From Candidatus Doudnabacteria bacterium (lineage in GTDB: Bacteria; Patescibacteriota; Doudnabacteria; UBA920): a DNA stretch of 64,000 nt. The translations under genes and the position numbers were made by a program. The stretch spans positions 156,266 to 220,265 of the forward strand of contig JARLHZ010000025.1 of assembly GCA_031291995.1 (NCBI GenBank), in the 5' to 3' direction. This document shows positions 2,145 through 64,000 of the stretch, one piece after another (within the stretch, counting starts at the first letter, position 1; each line of letters opens with the position of its first letter). Below the pieces are notes generated by a model. That model ran no database searches. It was not told where the DNA came from and was given only the letters and a program-made list of their open reading frames with translations.

Positions 2145-3215
2145 ATGGAAGTTGGATTTAAAAAGATTTTGGACGAGTACGACTCTATTACCACCGAAAT
2201 GTCTTCCGGCGGGTCTTTTGACATGCAGAAGCTGGGCAAAAGGCAGGCTGAGCTGGCGCCTATTGTCGGGAGAATTAGCGAACTGGAAAAATTGGAGAAA
2301 GAGCTGGCCGAGAACCAAAAGCTATTAAGTGACAGTGATCCGGAAATAAAATCTATGGCCCTGGATGAGGGGCGGCGTTTGGAGTCGCGAGTCCTTGATT
2401 TGAAATCCGAGGTTGAAGAAGCCCTTTTGCCTAAAGACGCTAACGATAATAAAAATGTCATTGTGGAAATCCGCGCCGGGGCCGGCGGGGACGAAGCGAC
2501 ATTATTTGTTGCTGAGATGTTTAGGGCTTACGGAAAATTTGCCGAAGAGCTGGGGTTTACGCCGCACATCGTGTCGTCTTCCAAGTCAGACGCCGGCGGG
2601 TTTAAGGAGGTTATCTTTGAAATCCATGGCAGAGTCTCGGCGCAAAAGCACCCTTATCAGATGTTTAAATATGAATCCGGTGTTCACCGGGTGCAAAGAG
2701 TTCCGGAAACGGAAAAAAGCGGACGCGTGCATACCTCCACAGTCACGGTGGCGGTTTTGCCGATTTTAGAAGAGAAAGATTATGCCATTGCCGATAAAGA
2801 TTTAAAAATAGAAGCGACAACTTCGTCCGGACACGGCGGACAGTCGGTAAACACTACATATAGCGCCGTAAGGATCCTTCATATCCCTACCGGTATTACG
2901 GCCCAGTGCCAGGACGAGCGCAGTTTTATGCAAAACAAGGAAAAAGCCCTGGAAGTCATCCGCGCTCGCGTGGCTCAGCATTACGAAGACATCGAGAACA
3001 AAAAAGTTCGTGATCTGACAAAATCACAAATCGGTACCGGCGACCGTTCCGAAAAAATCCGCACCTATAATTTCCCCCAGGACCGCGTAACCGACCATCG
3101 GATTAACCAAAACTTCAACCAGATAAACCTTATAATGGAAGGCAAACTCTCCCAAATTTCTGAAGCTTTGCAAAAGGCAGACTTGGAAATGAAGAAGGAA
3201 GCATTAAAGAAATAA
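2145..3215 (+). CDS. prfA: Peptide chain release factor 1
   Basis: GGQ motif (SSGHGGQSVNTT) and RF1 domain order. Start moved from the track's 2109 to the ATG at 2145 (MEVGFKKILDEY), after a GAGGAA Shine-Dalgarno at 2135-2140. The upstream in-frame portion lies inside the family-3 repeat. Confidence 0.9.
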   Translation: MEVGFKKILDEYDSITTEMSSGGSFDMQKLGKRQAELAPIVGRISELEKLEKELAENQKLLSDSDPEIKSMALDEGRRLESRVLDLKSEVEEALLPKDANDNKNVIVEIRAGAGGDEATLFVAEMFRAYGKFAEELGFTPHIVSSSKSDAGGFKEVIFEIHGRVSAQKHPYQMFKYESGVHRVQRVPETEKSGRVHTSTVTVAVLPILEEKDYAIADKDLKIEATTSSGHGGQSVNTTYSAVRILHIPTGITAQCQDERSFMQNKEKALEVIRARVAQHYEDIENKKVRDLTKSQIGTGDRSEKIRTYNFPQDRVTDHRINQNFNQINLIMEGKLSQISEALQKADLEMKKEALKK

Positions 3216-3230
3216 TTAGGTTTACGAAGT

Positions 3231-3288
3231 ACGAAGTTTTACGAACTTACGAAGTTCGTAAGTTCGTATTTGTTCGTACTTCGTAAAA
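3231..3288. repeat. Hairpin repeat family 1, copy 2, between prfA and prmC
   Basis: Same arms as 484-566 but lacks the central 15-nt ttagtgcacaaactt segment. Confidence 0.8.
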
Positions 3289-3291
3289 TAT

Positions 3292-4203
3292 ATGCGCATA
3301 AACGAAGCGCTAAAAAAGTATCATAAAATCGAAATAGAACTCCTGCTGGCGCATGTGTTAAGAAAGCCTAGGGAGTTCGTTTTTATGAATGCGGGGGTTA
3401 GCTTGCCAGCTATTCAGCTAATCAGGCTATCAGCCTTGGCAAGGCGCAGGCAAAAGGGCGAGCCGCTGGCTTATATTTTGGGTTATAAGGATTTTTACGG
3501 AATGCGGTTTAAGGTCAATCGCTACGTGCTAATCCCCCGCCCGGAGACGGAAATAATTGTGGACCGGGTTATAAATGTAGTGCAGGCCCGTGGCCTGCCC
3601 TCCAGTAATAAAAAGCAGGGCAAGGCCCTGCACTACAAGCCCCCGGTGAGAATTCTCGACATCGGCACCGGCAGTGGCTGCATAGCTGTTTCGCTGGCGA
3701 AACAATTTCAAATTTCAAATATCAAATTTCAAATTACAGCGTCCGATAATTCACAAGACGCACTTAACGTGGCCAAACAAAACGCTAGAATACTTTTGGG
3801 CAAAAAGTCCAATAGTATAAACTATGCTACTTTTTCCAAAATTAAATTTGTACAAAGCGATTTGCTAACGAATATTCAAAATCGCTTTGATATAATCGTG
3901 GCCAATCTCCCCTACGGCTGGAACGAGTGGAAGAATAATACTTCAGCCGACAGCGCCGGCTTGAAATTTGAGCCAAGCCAGGCTTTGTATACAGCCGATC
4001 ATGGTCTCTATCAGATAAAACGATTATTAATGCAAATCTCTGCTAGGCAAATCAAACCCAAGCTGGTTTATTTGGAATTTGACCCGCGCCAAAAAAAGGA
4101 ATTATCATTTGCAATAAAAAAAATCCTGCCTTCCGCAGAACTTAATTTTTTCAAAGATTATGCCGGCCTGTGGCGCTACGCGGAAATTAAATTCGCATCG
4201 TAA
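3292..4203 (+). CDS. prmC: Release factor glutamine N5-methyltransferase (HemK/PrmC family)
   Basis: SAM-binding motif ILDIGTGSGCIAV and an NLPYG variant of the NPPY catalytic motif. The position right after prfA is the conserved pairing. Confidence 0.75.
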   Translation: MRINEALKKYHKIEIELLLAHVLRKPREFVFMNAGVSLPAIQLIRLSALARRRQKGEPLAYILGYKDFYGMRFKVNRYVLIPRPETEIIVDRVINVVQARGLPSSNKKQGKALHYKPPVRILDIGTGSGCIAVSLAKQFQISNIKFQITASDNSQDALNVAKQNARILLGKKSNSINYATFSKIKFVQSDLLTNIQNRFDIIVANLPYGWNEWKNNTSADSAGLKFEPSQALYTADHGLYQIKRLLMQISARQIKPKLVYLEFDPRQKKELSFAIKKILPSAELNFFKDYAGLWRYAEIKFAS

Positions 4204-8990: not shown

Positions 8991-9052
8991 TTTGGTTGTT
9001 GTTTTGTTATAGGTTTATTATAGCAAAGATATTGGATTTTTGGTATATTTAG

Positions 9053-9180
9053 AGTAATCGCTAATATACGAATCATTTATAATATACGAAGCGGTCCACT
9101 GTAAGCCGCCTGTTCTACGAAGTAATGCCTACAACTGACGGCTTCGTATATTAATTTTGATTCGTATATTCGCGATTACT
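9053..9180. repeat. MITE-like repeat family 2, copy B (best-preserved TIRs)
   Basis: agtaatcgctaatatacgaatcatttataatatacgaagcgg ... ccgtcttcgtatattaattttgattcgtatattcgcgattact, a near-perfect 40-bp TIR pair, immediately upstream of dnaE. Confidence 0.85.
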
Positions 9181-9199
9181 ATCGTGATTGCAAAAAACT

Positions 9200-13532: not shown

Positions 13533-13574
13533 CGGCCCGTATTGAAGGACGAAATCAATAAATGGCGCTTCCGT

Positions 13575-13637
13575 GTGTCATCCCGACCGAGGTTCGTCAA
13601 TGGAATTTAATGGACGGACGGAGCGGAGGGATCCCTT
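13575..13637. repeat. Family 3 repeat, partial copy (left TIR gtgtcatcccgaccgag + ggagggatccctta core)
   Basis: Shares the left TIR and central core with 13951-14026 and 2022-2134; the right TIR is missing. Confidence 0.65.
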
Positions 13638-13650
13638 ATCCTTCTAAATT

Positions 13651-13941
13651 ATGCAAGACAGCCAGTATTTTGTATACATAATGTCCAGCGTCAGCGGAAC
13701 CTTTTATATAGGAGTAACCAATGATTTATATAAAAGAGTTTACCAACATAAAAGTAATATAATCGAAGGTTTTACGAAAAAGTACGAATGCCATAAACTG
13801 ATATATTTTGAAGAGACTTCCGATATAGAGAGCGCAATTTTAAGAGAAAAGCAGTTAAAAAATTGGAATCGCAAGAAAAAAGAATTTTTAATCGCGACAA
13901 AGAACGCAATCTGGAAAGATTTAAGTTTAGATTGGAAATAA
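13651..13941 (+). CDS. Small GIY-YIG nuclease-domain protein
   Basis: YFVYIM...GTFYIGVTNDLYKRVYQHK is the GIY-YIG motif; 96 aa. Flanked by family-3 repeat copies. Confidence 0.75.
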   Translation: MQDSQYFVYIMSSVSGTFYIGVTNDLYKRVYQHKSNIIEGFTKKYECHKLIYFEETSDIESAILREKQLKNWNRKKKEFLIATKNAIWKDLSLDWK

Positions 13942-13950
13942 ATTATTAGT

Positions 13951-14026
13951 GTGTCATCCCGAGCGAGTGCAGCCGAGTCGAGGGATCCCTCCGCTCGTCG
14001 GCTGCACTCCGCGGTCGGGATGACAC
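13951..14026. repeat. Family 3 repeat, 76-bp imperfect palindrome (gtgtcatcccgagcgagtgcagccgagtcgagggatccctcc...gtcgggatgacac)
   Basis: Blocks gtgtcatcccga / gtgcagccga / gggatcc are mirrored on both arms. It lies between the GIY-YIG gene and the thrS start. Confidence 0.8.
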
Positions 14027-14043
14027 ATAATGGAGATACGGGT

Positions 14044-21285: not shown

Positions 21286-21315
21286 CCTTTGATGCCCTAG
21301 AGCACGCCTGCCAAT

Positions 21316-21352
21316 CGGACCGATTTTCTCGGCCGAGAAAATCGGTCCGATA
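21316..21352. repeat. Perfect 37-bp palindrome (tcggaccgattttctcggccgagaaaatcggtccga), family 4 copy 1
   Basis: Shares the outer atcggac and core ttttctcggccgagaaaa with 21896-21932; the middle triplets differ with compensatory changes. Confidence 0.8.
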
Positions 21353-21360
21353 CCAATTTT

Positions 21361-21885
21361 ATGGGCGTGCCAAGAAAAAATCTGCTGACCGCATTAATTT
21401 TGCAATTGTTCGACCCCGACACTCCCCTTCTTCCCGTGGAGTCGACTTACGATTTTATAAAAAGGAAGAGGGATTGCCGCCGGCCGCAATATCGCGATTG
21501 TTTGAAAGGCTTGCGCCGACGCGGGGTAATTGAGATTGTCAAAAAACGCCAGCGGGAATTCGCAAAACTTACCAAGAAAGGTTCGCTAAAAATTTTGTTG
21601 GAAAAAGCGGAAATTAAAACGGTTCAACCTTGGGACGGCAAATGGAGATTGGCAATATTCGATATTCCGGAAAGATTTAACAACTCCCGCGACAATTTTC
21701 GCCATCTTTTGAAGCAGAACGGTTTTGTGAAATTGCAAGCCAGCGTATTTATCAGTCCATACCCAATTTCACGAGCAGCGCTAACATACCTAAAGGAAGT
21801 TGGCCTTGATCATTTTGTACGAATCTTAAAAATTGAGGAGTTGGATAATGATTCCGCATTAAAAAAGAAATTTGGACTTAAATAG
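21361..21885 (+). CDS. PaaX-family-like transcriptional regulator
   Basis: The C-terminal WDGKWRLAIFDIPERFNNSRDNFRHLLKQNGFVKLQASVFISP matches the PaaX_C signature (W-G-W...iPE...R...L...GF..L...SVWisP). The N-terminal region is a winged-helix-like basic segment. Confidence 0.55.
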   Translation: MGVPRKNLLTALILQLFDPDTPLLPVESTYDFIKRKRDCRRPQYRDCLKGLRRRGVIEIVKKRQREFAKLTKKGSLKILLEKAEIKTVQPWDGKWRLAIFDIPERFNNSRDNFRHLLKQNGFVKLQASVFISPYPISRAALTYLKEVGLDHFVRILKIEELDNDSALKKKFGLK

Positions 21886-21895
21886 CTTTTTACCA

Positions 21896-21932
21896 TCGGA
21901 CTCTTTTTCTCGGCCGAGAAAAAGAGTCCGAT
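21896..21932. repeat. Perfect 37-bp palindrome (tcggactctttttctcggccgagaaaaagagtccga), family 4 copy 2
   Basis: See 21316-21352. Confidence 0.8.
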
Positions 21933-31140: not shown

Positions 31141-31270
31141 AGTAATCGCGAATATACAAATTTATTATTAATATACGAAGCGGTACACTGTAAGTTAATT
31201 TTTCTATTTTGATCGGCAGACAACTCTTGGTTTCGTATATTAATTTAAGATTCGTATATTCGCGATTACT
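31141..31270. repeat. MITE-like repeat family 2, copy C
   Basis: agtaatcgcgaatatacaaatttattattaatatacgaagcgg ... ggtttcgtatattaatttaagattcgtatattcgcgattact. It fills exactly the spacer between two minus-strand genes. Confidence 0.85.
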
Positions 31271-45573: not shown

Positions 45574-45654
45574 GATATTAACGGATATTCGTTGATATTG
45601 AGATATTAATTATCCGCTAATATCTATAAATATCCATTAATATCAACTAATATC
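45574..45654. promoter_or_regulatory. Phased hexamer array: 4x GATATT (10/10/8-bp spacing) followed by 4x AATATC (exact 10-bp spacing)
   Basis: GATATT at 45574, 45584, 45594, 45602; AATATC at 45619, 45629, 45639, 45649. The whole 92-bp spacer between the tRNA-binding-domain gene and pheS is built from this dyad-symmetric array. Confidence 0.5.
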
Positions 45655-58138: not shown

Positions 58139-58375
58139 ATGTACTATGTTTATCTGCTAAAACTATCCAGCGGTAAAATCTACACCGGCTCATCGCCCGA
58201 TTTAAAACGCAGAATCCCTGAGCACGAGAAAGGTAAATGTGAGGCCACAAAAAACTTCCGGCCGTTAAAATTATCTTGGTACTGCGCTTTTGAAACCAGG
58301 CTTCTAGCCAGACAGTTTGAAAACTATCTGAAAACCGGTTCAGGGCAAGCATTTAGAAATAAACATTTTGCTTAA
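58139..58375 (+). CDS. Small GIY-YIG nuclease-domain protein, second copy
   Basis: MYYVYLLKLSSGKIYTGSSPDLKRRIPEHE is the GIY-YIG motif; 78 aa. Confidence 0.7.
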   Translation: MYYVYLLKLSSGKIYTGSSPDLKRRIPEHEKGKCEATKNFRPLKLSWYCAFETRLLARQFENYLKTGSGQAFRNKHFA

Positions 58376-58930: not shown

Positions 58931-59626
58931 TCAAGTATTTTTTACACTTAACAATAAATTTTTAAAAAGTTTTTTCGCCGCCGCCGTCTTAATTTTATTT
59001 ATTTCGGTCTGCATGCGCGTCGCGGTAATTTTATTGAGTTCGTTTGCGCAGCTTTGGATAACTTTGTAATCGGATGAATCAATTTTAAAACCTAAGATCG
59101 CGGAAAATCTAAGCGCCCGAATTATGCGCAACGGGTCCTCCAATATCCTATTTAATGGTTTGCCAATAAATTTTATGCGGCGATTTTTTAAATCATTTAA
59201 ACCCCGGTGATAATCTAAAATTTTTCCGCTTTTTGGGTTTAAATATAAGGCATTTATGGTAAAATCCCGTCTTTGACTGTCTATTTTGGGTGTCCCGACA
59301 TAGATCACTTTGGGATAGCGGCCGCGACCCGGGACGTCGCGGCGTAAAGTCGCTATCTCAACTGTAAGTTGGTCTTTGCTTGCAACAACAACCCCAAACT
59401 TTTGAAAGGCATCATTATACAAAATACCGGACCTGGCCAAAATATTTTTGACCTGATCCGGCGTGGAAATGCTGGCTATGTCTATGTCGGTTACCGTTTT
59501 TCCCAAAAGCAAATCCCGCACCATGCCACCGACATAAAAAGTTTGCGAAAAGTTTTCCACAAGCAAATTGAAAACTTTATCACCAAATTTTTCCAGTTCT
59601 GTACTCGGCTTGTAGTTTAGTTTCAT
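58931..59626 (-). CDS. cca: tRNA nucleotidyltransferase / poly(A) polymerase head-domain protein (short CCA-adding-enzyme family member)
   Basis: YVGGMVRDLLLG...DIDIA polymerase-beta-type head motifs. Only 231 aa, so no full body/tail domains. Confidence 0.7.
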   Translation of the reverse strand: MKLNYKPSTELEKFGDKVFNLLVENFSQTFYVGGMVRDLLLGKTVTDIDIASISTPDQVKNILARSGILYNDAFQKFGVVVASKDQLTVEIATLRRDVPGRGRYPKVIYVGTPKIDSQRRDFTINALYLNPKSGKILDYHRGLNDLKNRRIKFIGKPLNRILEDPLRIIRALRFSAILGFKIDSSDYKVIQSCANELNKITATRMQTEINKIKTAAAKKLFKNLLLSVKNT

Positions 59627-59632
59627 TTGTTA

Positions 59633-60055
59633 TTAATGTCTTTTCTGCGAGTGCTTGCGCGCGACTCTTATTCGGCTTTGATTTTTATTTAAAATCGAAG
59701 CGATGACCGTGTACTCTTCCGCCGACATTTTCTTTTTGGCCATTTCATTTTTCGCCCGCTCCACGGCTTCCTCTGCTTTCTTAATATCTATATCGTAATG
59801 ATGTTCCGCGGCGTCGGCCAAAGCTATAACTTCGCTGTTTTTGCGCACCTCTATAAAACCACCCGAAACATGGATAAAATCTTCTTTTCCCTGTCTCTTG
59901 GCAATCAATTCACCCGGAACCAGTGTTGCTACAAGCGGAATATGCCCGGGCAAAACAGTAATCTGTCCCATTTCCGTTGGGCAAGACAAACTGTCCAGTT
60001 CTTCGTTAAGAACCGTGCGTTCGGGGGTGACGAGCTGGAAGTGCAATTTTTGCAT
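59633..60055 (-). CDS. atpC: ATP synthase F1 epsilon subunit
   Basis: LVTPERTVLNEE...VSGGFIEV beta-sandwich plus C-terminal helices. Confidence 0.85.
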   Translation of the reverse strand: MQKLHFQLVTPERTVLNEELDSLSCPTEMGQITVLPGHIPLVATLVPGELIAKRQGKEDFIHVSGGFIEVRKNSEVIALADAAEHHYDIDIKKAEEAVERAKNEMAKKKMSAEEYTVIASILNKNQSRIRVARKHSQKRH

Positions 60056-60061
60056 ATGGCT

Positions 60062-60115
60062 TTCTACTAAATACTAAAAGATACTAAAGATACGAAATAC
60101 TAAACTTGAGATACT
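60062..60115. repeat. Left 54-bp terminal inverted repeat of GxxExxY cassette 1 (tctactaaatactaaaagatactaaagatacgaaatactaaacttgagatacta)
   Basis: The reverse complement of 60535-60588 matches it along its whole length, with a few mismatches. It overlaps the stop codon of the enclosed gene. Confidence 0.8.
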
Positions 60116-60501
60116 ATGTTGACTATTCGTTTACATACCACCCCTGTCTTGGTAAAGTTAGCCAGTATGCCAAGTTTGACATGCTCCAATTTGATATAAT
60201 CACTGAGCTGTTTAATATTTTTTATTCCGAAATTTTCGTGTTTCTTGATCTCCAAGATAATTTTGGCTTCGCCAATTTTGATTAGAAAATCCGCATAATA
60301 AATTCCGATAAACTTTCCCTCGTAATATAGCTTGATTGGATGTTGCTCAACAAAATCAATCCCAGCAAGTTTTAGAGCAATTGCAACAGCTTTTTGGTAA
60401 TGTTTTTCCAATAACTCGCCGCCCAGGTCTTTAAAGACCTTTATCAGAATTCCTACGATTTTATAATATTCATCTTTATAAACCAGGTCTTCCCTTAACA
60501 T
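60100..60501 (-). CDS. GxxExxY-family protein (PD-(D/E)XK nuclease-like), cassette 1
   Basis: YKIVGILIKVFKDLGGELLEKHYQKA N-terminus (GxxExxY motif G-E-L-L-E-K-H-Y); 133 aa. Inserted between atpD and atpC. Confidence 0.7.
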   Translation of the reverse strand: MLREDLVYKDEYYKIVGILIKVFKDLGGELLEKHYQKAVAIALKLAGIDFVEQHPIKLYYEGKFIGIYYADFLIKIGEAKIILEIKKHENFGIKNIKQLSDYIKLEHVKLGILANFTKTGVVCKRIVNIVSQV

Positions 60502-60534
60502 TTTCGTCTATTATTTTTATTTTCGCAAATATCT

Positions 60535-60588
60535 GTACTATCTAAGTTTAGTATTTAGTATATTTAGTATTCTTTCGTATTTAGTAGA
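60535..60588. repeat. Right terminal inverted repeat of GxxExxY cassette 1
   Basis: tactatctaagtttagtatttagtatatttagtattctttcgtatttagtagag is the reverse complement of the left TIR. Confidence 0.8.
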
Positions 60589-60593
60589 GAGGA

Positions 60594-62006
<1,413 letters not shown>

Positions 62007-62019
62007 TTATTAATAGATA

Positions 62020-62310
62020 TTATTGCTCCTTATTTTTTTTCTGAGACCGGCCGTACTTATCCGGATTTTCGTGGAATTCCTTAACCAATTCGTCAACTTT
62101 CTTGCCGACATCCGTGCCTAATATTTCAGCGGTGTAACGTTTGACATCATCAATGTCCTCAGCGATGTGGACAATATAATTATGTGGCACCTTTTGCAGT
62201 CTTGGGTCAAGATTTCTCTCGGGCAATCTGTTTGCAAGAAAACCCATTAACGACGCTTGGTACTCTTCTTCCGGGGTAAAATCCGGTAAATAATCCAAAA
62301 ATTCCGACAT
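62020..62310 (-). CDS. Hypothetical 96-aa protein inserted between atpG and atpD
   Basis: Intact ORF tightly packed (9-nt and 16-nt spacers) between the gamma and beta genes; acidic, lysine-rich tail; no recognisable family. Confidence 0.5.
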   Translation of the reverse strand: MSEFLDYLPDFTPEEEYQASLMGFLANRLPERNLDPRLQKVPHNYIVHIAEDIDDVKRYTAEILGTDVGKKVDELVKEFHENPDKYGRSQKKNKEQ

Positions 62311-62319
62311 AATAATATG

Positions 62320-63195
62320 TTATTCTAATGCTATTTTTCCTGCCGTTATTTCGGCTAATTCAGTAGTAATCTTATTTTGCCTTAACTTGTTGTAAGTCAG
62401 CGTTAAGTCGCTTATTAAATCCCCTGCCGCTTCGGTGGCGTTTTTCATCATGACCATGCGGGCGGATTGTTCGGAAGCTTCGGATTCCAGAATTGTTTGG
62501 TATATTTGCGATTCTATTATGCGCGGCAACAAGCTTTTCATAACCTCTTCGGCCGTAGGTTCAAACAAATATTCGGATTTTTCTTTTTCTTCTTCGGTTT
62601 TCGCGTCCACCGCGTGCTCCACCTGCTTTTCAAACGGCAGAAGCTGTTTTACCGTGGGCTTTTGCGCCAGGGTGGAAACAAAATGGTTATAGTAAATAAA
62701 AACTTTTTCGTATTTCCCGGAGTTATATAAATCGGCAATAAATTCCGCAATCGGGGCAATATCGGTCGTGGTTATTACCCGGTCAAACTTTTCAAAATCC
62801 GCCACAACTTCTTTATGGGTTTTAACCATCACATCGCGCCCCTTGCGCCCGTAAGTAATAAAGTCCGTATCTAAACCTCTTTGAGCGGTGCTTTGCAGAA
62901 CCATGTTCAATAAATTAGTGTTGAGGCTTCCGACCATGCCGCGGTTAGACGACAAGACCAATACGGCTACTTTTTTCGCATCGGGATAAGTTTTAAGCAA
63001 ATCGGCCATAACCTGTTCCGTGGAAGACAAGTTTAAAATTAATTCCCAAGCCAAAGTGGAATACGTGCGGCTCTTTAAAGTCGCGTCCTGGCTCTTGCGC
63101 ATCTTAGCCGCGCTCACCATTTGCATAGCCCGCGTCACCTTGCGAGTGCCGCCGATGCTTTTTATTCGAGTTTTTAATTCCTTAATTCCGGGCAT
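62320..63195 (-). CDS. atpG: ATP synthase F1 gamma subunit
   Basis: MPGIKELKTRIKSIGGTRKVTRAMQMVSAAKMRK N-terminus and the C-terminal helix ...ITTELAEITAG. Confidence 0.9.
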   Translation of the reverse strand: MPGIKELKTRIKSIGGTRKVTRAMQMVSAAKMRKSQDATLKSRTYSTLAWELILNLSSTEQVMADLLKTYPDAKKVAVLVLSSNRGMVGSLNTNLLNMVLQSTAQRGLDTDFITYGRKGRDVMVKTHKEVVADFEKFDRVITTTDIAPIAEFIADLYNSGKYEKVFIYYNHFVSTLAQKPTVKQLLPFEKQVEHAVDAKTEEEKEKSEYLFEPTAEEVMKSLLPRIIESQIYQTILESEASEQSARMVMMKNATEAAGDLISDLTLTYNKLRQNKITTELAEITAGKIALE

Positions 63196-63200
63196 ATTTG

Positions 63201-63224
63201 TAGAAGCGAATTTGACGCGAAATT
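63201..63224. repeat. Left TIR of GxxExxY cassette 2 (tagaagcgaatttgacgcgaaatt)
   Basis: Matches the reverse complement of 63690-63713 (tagaagcgaatttgtcgcgaaatc) at 22/24 positions. Confidence 0.75.
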
Positions 63225-63245
63225 ACACGCGACTTTGACGCAAAC

Positions 63246-63659
63246 TTATTTATTCCTTGCTAAATCGTAAATTCTTCTTCTTATTTCCAATTTTTCGGGG
63301 TCAAAGTTTATAAGAAAGCCTAACTTGTAACTTGTGGCTTTAAAATAGTACCAAAATTGTTTCTCATCTGCCTTAGTTATAAATGGTTTGTTTTTTACTT
63401 CAACTAGTATTGCCTCATTCCCCACTTTATCCGGGACGTACGTACCAACCTTAGCGCCTTCAAAATAAATATCTATTCTTTTTTGGGACTCTACCTGTAA
63501 GCCTTGTTTTTCTAATGCGATTGTAAGAGCTTTGTCTACCACCGATTCTTTAAAGGCACCGCCAAACTGTTTATATACTTCACGACATGCGGCAACAATT
63601 TTGTAGCTTTCGTCAGGGTATAATAGATCCTTGTTGCGAATTTCTGGCCGGTTATCCAT
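63246..63659 (-). CDS. GxxExxY-family protein (PD-(D/E)XK nuclease-like), cassette 2
   Basis: YKIVAACREVYKQFGGAFKESVVDKAL N-terminus; 137 aa; paralog of 60100-60501. Inserted between atpA and atpG. Confidence 0.7.
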   Translation of the reverse strand: MDNRPEIRNKDLLYPDESYKIVAACREVYKQFGGAFKESVVDKALTIALEKQGLQVESQKRIDIYFEGAKVGTYVPDKVGNEAILVEVKNKPFITKADEKQFWYYFKATSYKLGFLINFDPEKLEIRRRIYDLARNK

Positions 63660-63689
63660 ATTTTCGCTTCGCGTTAATTTCGCTTAGCA

Positions 63690-63713
63690 GATTTCGCGAC
63701 AAATTCGCTTCTA
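63690..63713. repeat. Right TIR of GxxExxY cassette 2, overlapping the atpA stop codon
   Basis: See 63201-63224. Its last three bases (cta) are the rc TAG stop of atpA. Confidence 0.75.
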
Positions 63714-64000
63714 TTTAATCGTCTGCACAAAGTTTTCAATCGCGGTTTTCAATTTCGCTTCGGTCGATTCTGATAACTCTTTAGTAGTCGCGATTTCCGA
63801 CAACACATCTTTCGCGTTCGTTGCCATATACTGGTGGAACTTTGTTTCGGTCTCGGCCATTTTATCCACGGGAATTTGATTGAAATAACCGTTGTTGACC
63901 GCGTACAAAATAGTCACTTGTTTTTCCAAAGAGAAAGGACGGTACTGTCCCTGTTTTAAAACTTCGGTCATTCTGCGTCCGAGGTCCAGCGTGCGCTGGG
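63711..64000 (-). CDS. atpA: ATP synthase F1 alpha subunit, C-terminal part (gene continues beyond window end)
   Basis: The reverse frame is open to the window edge: ...QRTLDLGRRMTEVLKQGQYRPFSLEKQVTILYAVNNGYF... matches the conserved alpha-subunit C-terminal region (TELLKQGQYSP...). Confidence 0.85.
   Translation of the reverse strand, partial: QRTLDLGRRMTEVLKQGQYRPFSLEKQVTILYAVNNGYFNQIPVDKMAETETKFHQYMATNAKDVLSEIATTKELSESTEAKLKTAIENFVQTIK

Follow-up and report, generated by a model that had tools for sequence, protein, structure and literature searches.

We analyzed a 64,000-nucleotide stretch of Candidatus Doudnabacteria DNA (contig JARLHZ010000025.1; hereafter the window), whose atp operon contains a small insert between atpA and atpG that we refer to as cassette 2. 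The operon lies on the minus strand, as do all of its features given below, and reads atpA, a 137-amino-acid (aa) open reading frame (ORF), atpG, a 96-aa ORF, atpD, a 133-aa ORF and atpC; several sequencing runs independently assembled the same contig region. Cassette 2 is a selfish cassette with a small nuclease gene, located precisely at the junction of the atpA stop codon and the atpG start codon. The complete element is 513 bp long (63201..63713) and runs from an outer TAGAAGC end to an outer GCTTCTA end. Its upstream host gene, atpA (alpha subunit; 63711..64000), is represented by the C-terminal domain (PF00306) before it leaves the window, and the downstream host gene, atpG (gamma subunit; 62320..63195), was identified by a match to PF00231 (E 7e-85). 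Read on the minus strand, the 5' arm of the cassette opens with a TAG (63711..63713) that is in frame with atpA and is its stop codon, as the sequence-only reading of this DNA had proposed when it assigned the atpA stop to the right terminal inverted repeat (TIR). At the other end, the cassette is followed by a 5-nt spacer, CAAAT, and by the ATG of atpG at 63195-63193 (spacer and start codon together, 63193..63200), and there is no Shine-Dalgarno sequence in the 5 nt available.

The two ends of cassette 2 form an inverted repeat of 23 nt (63201-63223 and 63691-63713) that matches at 22 of 23 positions (96%), with 467 nt between the arms. Within the 64 kb, this repeat pattern matched nowhere else, and 100 shuffles gave no match. 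Pairing extends well into the element, since the entire 54-nt leader on the atpA side (5' arm, 63660..63713; TAGAAGCGAATTTGTCGCGAAATCTGCTAAGCGAAATTAACGCGAAGCGAAAAT) and the entire 45-nt trailer on the atpG side (3' arm, 63201..63245; GTTTGCGTCAAAGTCGCGTGTAATTTCGCGTCAAATTCGCTTCTA) form an interrupted four-helix stem. The leader carries the motif GCGAA five times (63704-08, 63693-97, 63679-83, 63668-72, and 63663-67), and the trailer carries the complementary motif four times (63239-43, 63229-33, 63217-21, and 63206-10); the near-perfect repeat corresponds to the outer 23 nt of each arm. Leader and trailer enclose the 137-aa ORF (63246..63659), the only one in the cassette.

The 137-aa protein matched PF13366 (PDDEXK_3; E 5e-27, 95 bits against a cut-off of 22) and TIGR04256 (GxxExxY; E 2e-26, 92.8 bits against a cut-off of 35), and the earlier claim of a repeat-bracketed 137-aa GxxExxY gene between atpA and atpG was thereby borne out. 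The catalytic triad D77-E87-K89 is intact, the D, E and K residues are invariant across the compared relatives, and the fold is nearest to those of Cas4, restriction enzymes and Hjc, so that the protein has both the catalytic residues and the fold of a PD-(D/E)XK nuclease. It is, however, only 11-18% identical in sequence to Cas4/RecB-like and restriction-enzyme nucleases of this superfamily, and cassette 2 differs from these systems in having no Fe-S cluster domain, CRISPR context or methylase partner. The protein consists of the bare nuclease core without a DNA-binding domain, and cassette 2 encodes no recognized transposase of the DDE, HUH, serine or tyrosine type. A PDB sequence search gave no match, nor did tblastn against 50,697 phage records, and no PADLOC or PHROGs model matched meaningfully. 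Mentions of GxxExxY or PDDEXK_3 in the searchable literature were sparse, and none concerned function or context.

To place this gene in its family, we compiled 80 loci encoding relatives of the protein, with one genome per GTDB species; labels such as L004, L042 and L084 denote loci fetched from related genomes. At each locus, the 200 nt on either side of the gene were compared for their best inverted repeat, which was scored with z>5 as the threshold. Such repeats were found at 52 of 78 GxxExxY loci compared to 5 of 73 similar-sized control ORFs from the same loci, and three of the five positive controls were 23S_rRNA_IVP genes, which encode four-helix-bundle proteins. TIR-bounded structure at other GxxExxY loci, which the sequence-only reading had made a test of its proposal, is thus present. 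The arms are built alike, with an outer TAGAAGC followed by three to four copies of a motif of about 7 nt (consensus ACGCNGAT) at a spacing of 10-12 nt, while the opposite arm is the reverse complement of this array and closes in GCTTCTA. Complementarity between the arms was 90% in motif columns and 74% in spacer columns, and the motif spacing is mirrored between the two arms. The motif variant is homogeneous inside one element and different from element to element. Canonical ends, TAGA[AT]GC...GC[AT]TCTA, delimit at least 28 distinct elements, which share the arm architecture of cassette 2 with motif variants; their length is 467-534 bp, except for one that measures 599 bp. The element therefore has defined ends and mirrored short-motif arrays at a spacing of one helical turn.

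The GCGAA array of cassette 2 is kept in the orthologues at L004, L164 and L167 and in the paralogues at L168 and L169. Among orthologues and close paralogues, synonymous differences (pS) were saturated at 0.7-0.9, nonsynonymous differences (pN) amounted to 0.07-0.2, and the arm motifs and ends were conserved in the same comparisons. Since both have been conserved despite saturated synonymous sites, nuclease and arms are both functional and both under purifying selection. The possibility that a chance inverted repeat surrounds an ordinary small gene is compatible with the modest z-score that cassette 2 obtained when folded at full length, but it is refuted by the shuffles, by this conservation of the arms in orthologues and by the pattern across the family, and we regard its probability as negligible.

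The window contains just one further GxxExxY gene, in a sister element between atpD (60594-62003) and atpC (59633-60055). This cassette 1 (60060..60591) has arms of 48 nt (60060-60107 and 60544-60591) that are 88% complementary and carry TACTAAA/TACGAAA motifs. Its ORF (60100-60501) encodes a 133-aa protein that matched PF13366 and TIGR04256 well over their cut-offs and is 34% identical to the cassette 2 protein. The two cassettes had been taken to carry private, unrelated TIRs. This turned out to be wrong, since they share one architecture and both arm types recur across genomes: the TACTAAA/TACGAAA type also occurs at L084, L168 and L007, and the cassette 2 type (TAGAAGCGAA..., with four to five GCGAA copies) has the same ends in other genomes and operons at L168 and L169. 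We also noted that a cassette-1-type and a cassette-2-type element lie ≤3.5 kb apart, at neighbouring junctions, in three genomes (L007 1244-3427, L168 1637-3463, and window 60060-63713).

Position relative to host genes was nearly invariant across the family. In 52 of 54 elements, the upstream gene was co-directional and its end lay only a few nucleotides from the outer end of the arm. The terminal TAG served as the in-frame stop of the upstream gene in nine of the 28 canonical elements, and in seven the upstream gene extended 14-25 nt into the arm, as in the atpA C-termini ...VEAK* (L004, L164, and L167) and the atpD terminus ...EIEADKRG* (L042); in the remainder, the upstream gene had its own stop 0-5 nt ahead of the element. 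The downstream start codon lay 0-10 nt past GCTTCTA, and three elements supplied, with their last A, the first base of the downstream ATG. The elements are thus inserted co-directionally and precisely, behind the stop codon of one gene and ahead of the start codon of the next, often donating the stop codon, which agrees with the earlier suggestion that they occupy operon junctions. For annotation, this also explains C-terminal extensions and odd stops of housekeeping genes, which an element arm encodes.

Several comparisons showed that these are inserted elements. Similarity between cassette 2 and non-syntenic copies begins and stops exactly at the inverted-repeat ends, and in four elements of differing context it starts exactly at TAGAAGC. 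Proteins 71% identical to that of cassette 2, in GCGAA arms with the TAGAAGCGAA end, are encoded between the NTP_transferase and solute-binding protein genes at L168, and again, with the same GCGAA arms, between P-type ATPase and HMA genes at L169. The proposal of an inserted, TIR-bounded nuclease cassette was upheld by these sharp ends and non-syntenic copies in unrelated operons. Cassette 2 itself was found at the atpA-atpG junction in the window and at L004, L164 and L167, i.e., in four related lineages, and was absent only in distant ones. Cassette 1 was present in the window and at L084 (92% aa identity) and absent from L004, and of 80 atp operons collected by way of atpD, 79 had no GxxExxY gene at all, so that presence appears to vary among relatives when the synteny of the atp operon is followed, as had been expected. 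The family as a whole occurs in many unrelated operons and phyla, both in the Candidate Phyla Radiation (CPR) and in other bacteria, with a patchy, horizontal-looking distribution (60-86% identity across phyla) and several copies per genome (window, L007, L079, and L168). The notion of an insertion hotspot stood up less well. Flanking genes across the census were diverse (PilC, LemA, RF-1, NusG, a tRNA synthetase, and others), and what speaks for a hotspot is that different subfamilies inserted independently at the two F1 junctions, namely, atpD-atpC at L042 by a cassette-2-type element and atpA-atpG at L081 by a different GxxExxY gene (49% identical).

Side observations from the census loci concern the outer ends and the reading frames. 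On an Omnitrophota contig (JBAZGN010000001.1), the copies at L054 and L055 are 100% identical from TAGAAGC onward for >3.4 kb and differ in their upstream genes, and the breakpoint of this duplication is exactly the element terminus. At eight loci (L017, L033, L034, L047, L050, L051, L059, and L064), the GxxExxY frame has no stop and continues 0.4-1.1 kb beyond the 3' arm, where it seems to share the frame of the downstream gene; this could reflect fusion or read-through. Element geometry, arms and flanking ORF sizes were identical at L031 (a Helarchaeota metagenome-assembled genome [MAG]) and L032 (a Gammaproteobacteria MAG), which points to mis-binning of one shared contig.

These features could be those of a minimal cut-and-paste DNA transposon, in which GxxExxY would be the transposase, the four-motif arm arrays its binding sites and the RNA stem a by-product. 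The ends of Tn7 and Mu are arrays of transposase binding sites, and the arms described here resemble such arrays in that the motifs, 10-12 nt apart and on one helix face, are better conserved than the spacers and are uniform within an element while differing between elements. The sharp ends, the many contexts and the existence of ORF-less copies (solos, described below) that resemble MITEs (miniature inverted-repeat transposable elements) fit as well, and the elements have the terminal inverted repeats, the copies in differing contexts and the similarity ending at the TIR that characterize TIR transposons and MITEs. However, the flanks of 28 elements carry no target-site duplication, the enzyme is a bare 137-aa nuclease core lacking a DNA-binding domain, and the near-absolute co-orientation with host genes is not demanded by symmetric TIRs. 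Furthermore, array-type arms of the same kind also flank unrelated cargo, the 23S_rRNA_IVP genes, and the arms are therefore not tied to the GxxExxY protein. A model of insertion into a TA within the stop codon, with duplication of the TA, was also considered and set aside, as the predicted A or G after the right end was present in only three of the nine in-frame cases. On balance, a classical transposon seems unlikely.

ORF-less derivatives of the element family exist. The window contains three of these solo hairpins: one with TACGAAG four times per arm (3221..3287), preceded by a stop codon at 3213-3215 and followed by the next ATG at 3292; a nearly identical second copy, again with four TACGAAG per arm (471-577); and one of a GATATT motif family (45574-45654). 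Each lies between the stop and the next start of co-directional genes, and their RNA fold z-scores were -9.6, -8.5 and -5.5. A solo at L071 has the same ends as the resident GxxExxY element and a nearly identical right arm. Other solos are found in atp operons, at the atpA-atpG, atpG-atpD or atpD-atpC junctions (L004, L081, L086, L096, L120, and L130). Gene and solos could together form a domesticated system like REPIN/RAYT, in which a single-copy enzyme gene, bracketed by inverted copies of a repeat, reportedly occurs alongside intergenic hairpin doublets of the same repeat scattered through the genome; applied here, a single-copy nuclease gene would disperse palindromic solos in trans while itself sitting between two. 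A likeness is seen at L071, where repeats flanking the gene are also present as solos in the same genome, and the window likewise holds TACGAA-type solos alongside the TACTAAA/TACGAAA cassette. Yet the RAYT enzyme is an HUH Y1 transposase (IS200/IS605-like) while that of the cassettes is a PD-(D/E)XK nuclease, and the cassettes, unlike RAYT genes, are present in several copies per genome, have apparently spread horizontally across phyla and sit exactly at stop/start junctions. The comparison of solo and element motifs covers genome fragments, 64 kb in the case of the window. We consider such a system very unlikely.

The solos at atp junctions bear more directly on the possibility that the hairpins are a host regulatory module. 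Through mRNA stability or attenuation, hairpins that follow the alpha and beta genes would then adjust the balance of alpha3-beta3 to gamma-epsilon, and GxxExxY would be either a passenger gene that landed inside an already existing hairpin loop or a nuclease for RNA processing that the host had recruited. Exactly at the atpA-atpG and atpD-atpC junctions, ORF-less hairpins are present in many CPR atp operons that lack a cassette, and both window cassettes come after the two high-stoichiometry genes. Against this, gene and arms move as a unit, unrelated operons and phyla having elements with the same ends and motifs, and the junction spacers of most relatives are short (down to 1-30 nt), leaving no room for a hairpin. 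At one junction, close relatives also have wholly different hairpin motifs (GTATAA at L004, but TACTAAA at L084 and in the window), a pattern that resembles the replacement of inserts rather than a signal conserved by the host. A regulatory origin therefore seems rather unlikely. The related suggestion that the arms in general are the halves of a split ancestral host hairpin was rejected, given the identical arm types in unrelated operons and the many empty atpA-atpG junctions that are too short.

We next consider the stem as RNA. Minimum free energy folds of the full cassettes contained the closing helix in both cassette 1 (fold z -6.0) and cassette 2, and the arms of six related elements all folded into one kind of stem, four helices strung like beads. 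In cassette 2, the modeled stem is driven by the arms alone. Within the terminal helix, position 8 occurs as all four Watson-Crick pair types, and position 9 as G-C (17) or A-U (9), with two exceptions. Mismatches between the arms were more often of the G.U type than of the A.C type in the sense RNA (78 versus 49, p=0.013), and with G+T at 0.50 on this strand, composition alone does not account for the excess. A terminator scan found no terminator-like site on the coding strand of cassette 2 and one weak site (60275-60263) inside the cassette 1 ORF, and region-wide counts of promoter- and terminator-like sites were within chance, in line with the earlier expectation that the inserts would be promoter- and terminator-neutral. 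Rfam searches at a permissive E-value over 59500-64000 gave two chance-level matches only, none of them on the arms, and searches at the gathering threshold of 20 other loci found no rRNA nearby, only a tRNA.

This anatomy is closest to that of the intervening sequences (IVSs) of bacterial 23S rRNA, known from Coxiella, Leptospira and Salmonella. The Coxiella IVS is 428-444 nt long, has a 28-bp terminal stem with one mismatch, carries the S23p ORF and is excised by RNase III (PMC4990558). Cassette 2 is of similar size (513 nt versus 428-444) and likewise has complementary termini, with a 23-28 bp stem including one mismatch in the two systems, and one small ORF enclosed by the loop. Further points of likeness are a sporadic distribution and transcription together with the host RNA, the latter predicted for cassette 2. 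In addition, 23S_rRNA_IVP genes of CPR genomes are carried by the same array-armed elements, at L080, L083, L053, L005 and L102, the last of these at an atpA-atpG junction, where the 23S_rRNA_IVP gene inside the arms is frame-shifted (L102 793-1259). The two systems differ in location, the rRNA IVS sitting in an rRNA helix and cassette 2 at a stop/start junction of an mRNA operon; in cargo, an S23p/23S_rRNA_IVP four-helix bundle compared to a PD-(D/E)XK nuclease (PDDEXK_3); and in the periodic motif-array arms and conserved TAGAAGC end of cassette 2.

Correia elements (CREE/NEMIS) offer a second parallel, as their hairpin RNA binds RNase III (PMC2649163). Like these and other MITEs, the cassettes and above all the ORF-less solos are short, TIR-bounded intergenic inserts, co-transcribed with their neighbours in the Correia case and putatively so here, with a hairpin RNA that is bound or cut by RNase III in the former. 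Correia elements have no ORF, a TA duplication and one fixed TIR, whereas the cassette family has no visible duplication, arms made of motif arrays, and many copies with a conserved nuclease gene. The free-standing homing endonuclease genes of T4-like phages (seg and mob) lack terminal inverted repeats and have one specific target locus. The cassettes resemble these genes in being small, co-directional nuclease genes between conserved essential genes, apparently present or absent among relatives, and differ from them in sharing terminal repeats and occupying many loci.

Because the anatomy matches that of the rRNA IVS and IVS-protein genes share the carrier type, we favour the reading that cassette 2 is an IVS-like mobile selfish cassette, co-transcribed with the atp operon and looped out of the mRNA by pairing of its arms, and that it is one copy of a widespread compact family (about 470-530 bp) sharing the anatomy of the rRNA IVS. 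We assign this reading as a whole a probability of about 0.6. The cassette would have no promoter of its own and would be transcribed within the atp polycistron by read-through, a reliance that would explain both the co-orientation with host genes and the lack of above-chance promoter or terminator signals. In the transcript, the arms are predicted to pair as a four-helix stem that loops out the ORF and brings the atpA stop beside the atpG start. RNase III probably cleaves this stem, by analogy to the rRNA IVS and to Correia elements, and atpA and atpG would thereby end up on two mRNAs that can each still be translated. Termination-reinitiation across the stem base is an alternative that could keep atpG expressed, and with either cleavage or reinitiation the insertion would have almost no effect on the operon. 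The element would be maintained at the DNA level by the PD-(D/E)XK nuclease with its intact D-E-K site, which would most likely cut cognate ORF-less palindromes or empty sites; repair would then copy the ORF-bearing version in, amounting to homing without a target-site duplication. Homing-like repair copying is preferred here over classical transposition because of the missing target duplications, the solos with matching arms and the conserved nuclease, and this DNA-level step is the least certain part of the favoured reading.

Some observations weigh against an IVS-like cassette. No target-site duplication was seen in the flanks of 28 elements, and no close-range empty site for cassette 2 was found, the nearest JGI relative (L084) ending inside atpG. 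The full-length fold of cassette 2 was only slightly better than that of its shuffles (z -1.4). Covariation between the arms could equally reflect one protein-binding motif present on both sides, or gene conversion between the arms, and periodic motifs spaced by a helical turn are the expected look of a DNA-binding-site array. The G.U excess could stem from transcription-linked or strand-biased C-to-T deamination on the sense strand, and since such deamination could mimic the asymmetry, we take the latter as suggestive only.

It is tempting to extend the IVS-like reading further. A single, so far unrecognized class of mobile hairpins may carry GxxExxY genes as one type of cargo and 23S-rRNA-IVS-protein genes as another, and may also include the solo hairpins. 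Its members would insert at stop/start junctions and in rRNA helices, escape the host's notice by looping out through a periodic four-helix stem (with stop and start juxtaposed, or with removal by RNase III) and spread by nuclease homing into ORF-less palindromes. This is a tentative proposal that we hold to be less probable than its opposite. If true, the rRNA IVS, known for decades and with its origin and mobility under question since the 1990s, would gain a mechanism and a much wider family. The protein family is already annotated and is uncharacterized, and the IVS- and MITE-like kind of element is known; for the hairpin-cassette architecture, no description was found in the literature searched. 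GxxExxY/PDDEXK_3 is a very large family, and most members of one large subfamily can now be assigned to a defined element whose ends are conserved and whose insertion follows a strict geometry. The cassettes also show how a gene-dense, streamlined CPR genome tolerates inserts amid an essential operon.

Junctions of atp operons hold other inserts as well. At atpG-atpD, variable small ORFs were observed, including the 96-aa orphan of the window (62020-62310), a 92-aa orphan at L004 (4440-4718) and a 197-aa sigma70-region-4-like protein at L084 (612-1205). Further inserts at atpA-atpG junctions of CPR operons contain a 215-aa ORF, judged ORF6N/KilA-N-like by eye only (L130 1959-2606), and a gene for a 206-aa protein that is membrane-associated in appearance (L093 1963-2583).

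Elsewhere in the window, an ORF-less, MITE-like repeat of 130-160 bp with the TIRs AGTAATCGCGAATATAC...GTATATTCGCGATTACT occurs twice (9037-9196 and 31141-31270). A PaaX-like ORF of 174 aa (21361-21885) lies between two related 38-nt perfect palindromes (21314-21351 and 21895-21932). Finally, just upstream of thrS, a 96-aa GIY-YIG nuclease gene (13651-13941) is enclosed by a 19-nt inverted repeat (13574-13592 and 14009-14027). Another small gene of the GIY-YIG type (58139-58375) adjoins the atp operon, and these genes may represent another family of nuclease cassettes.

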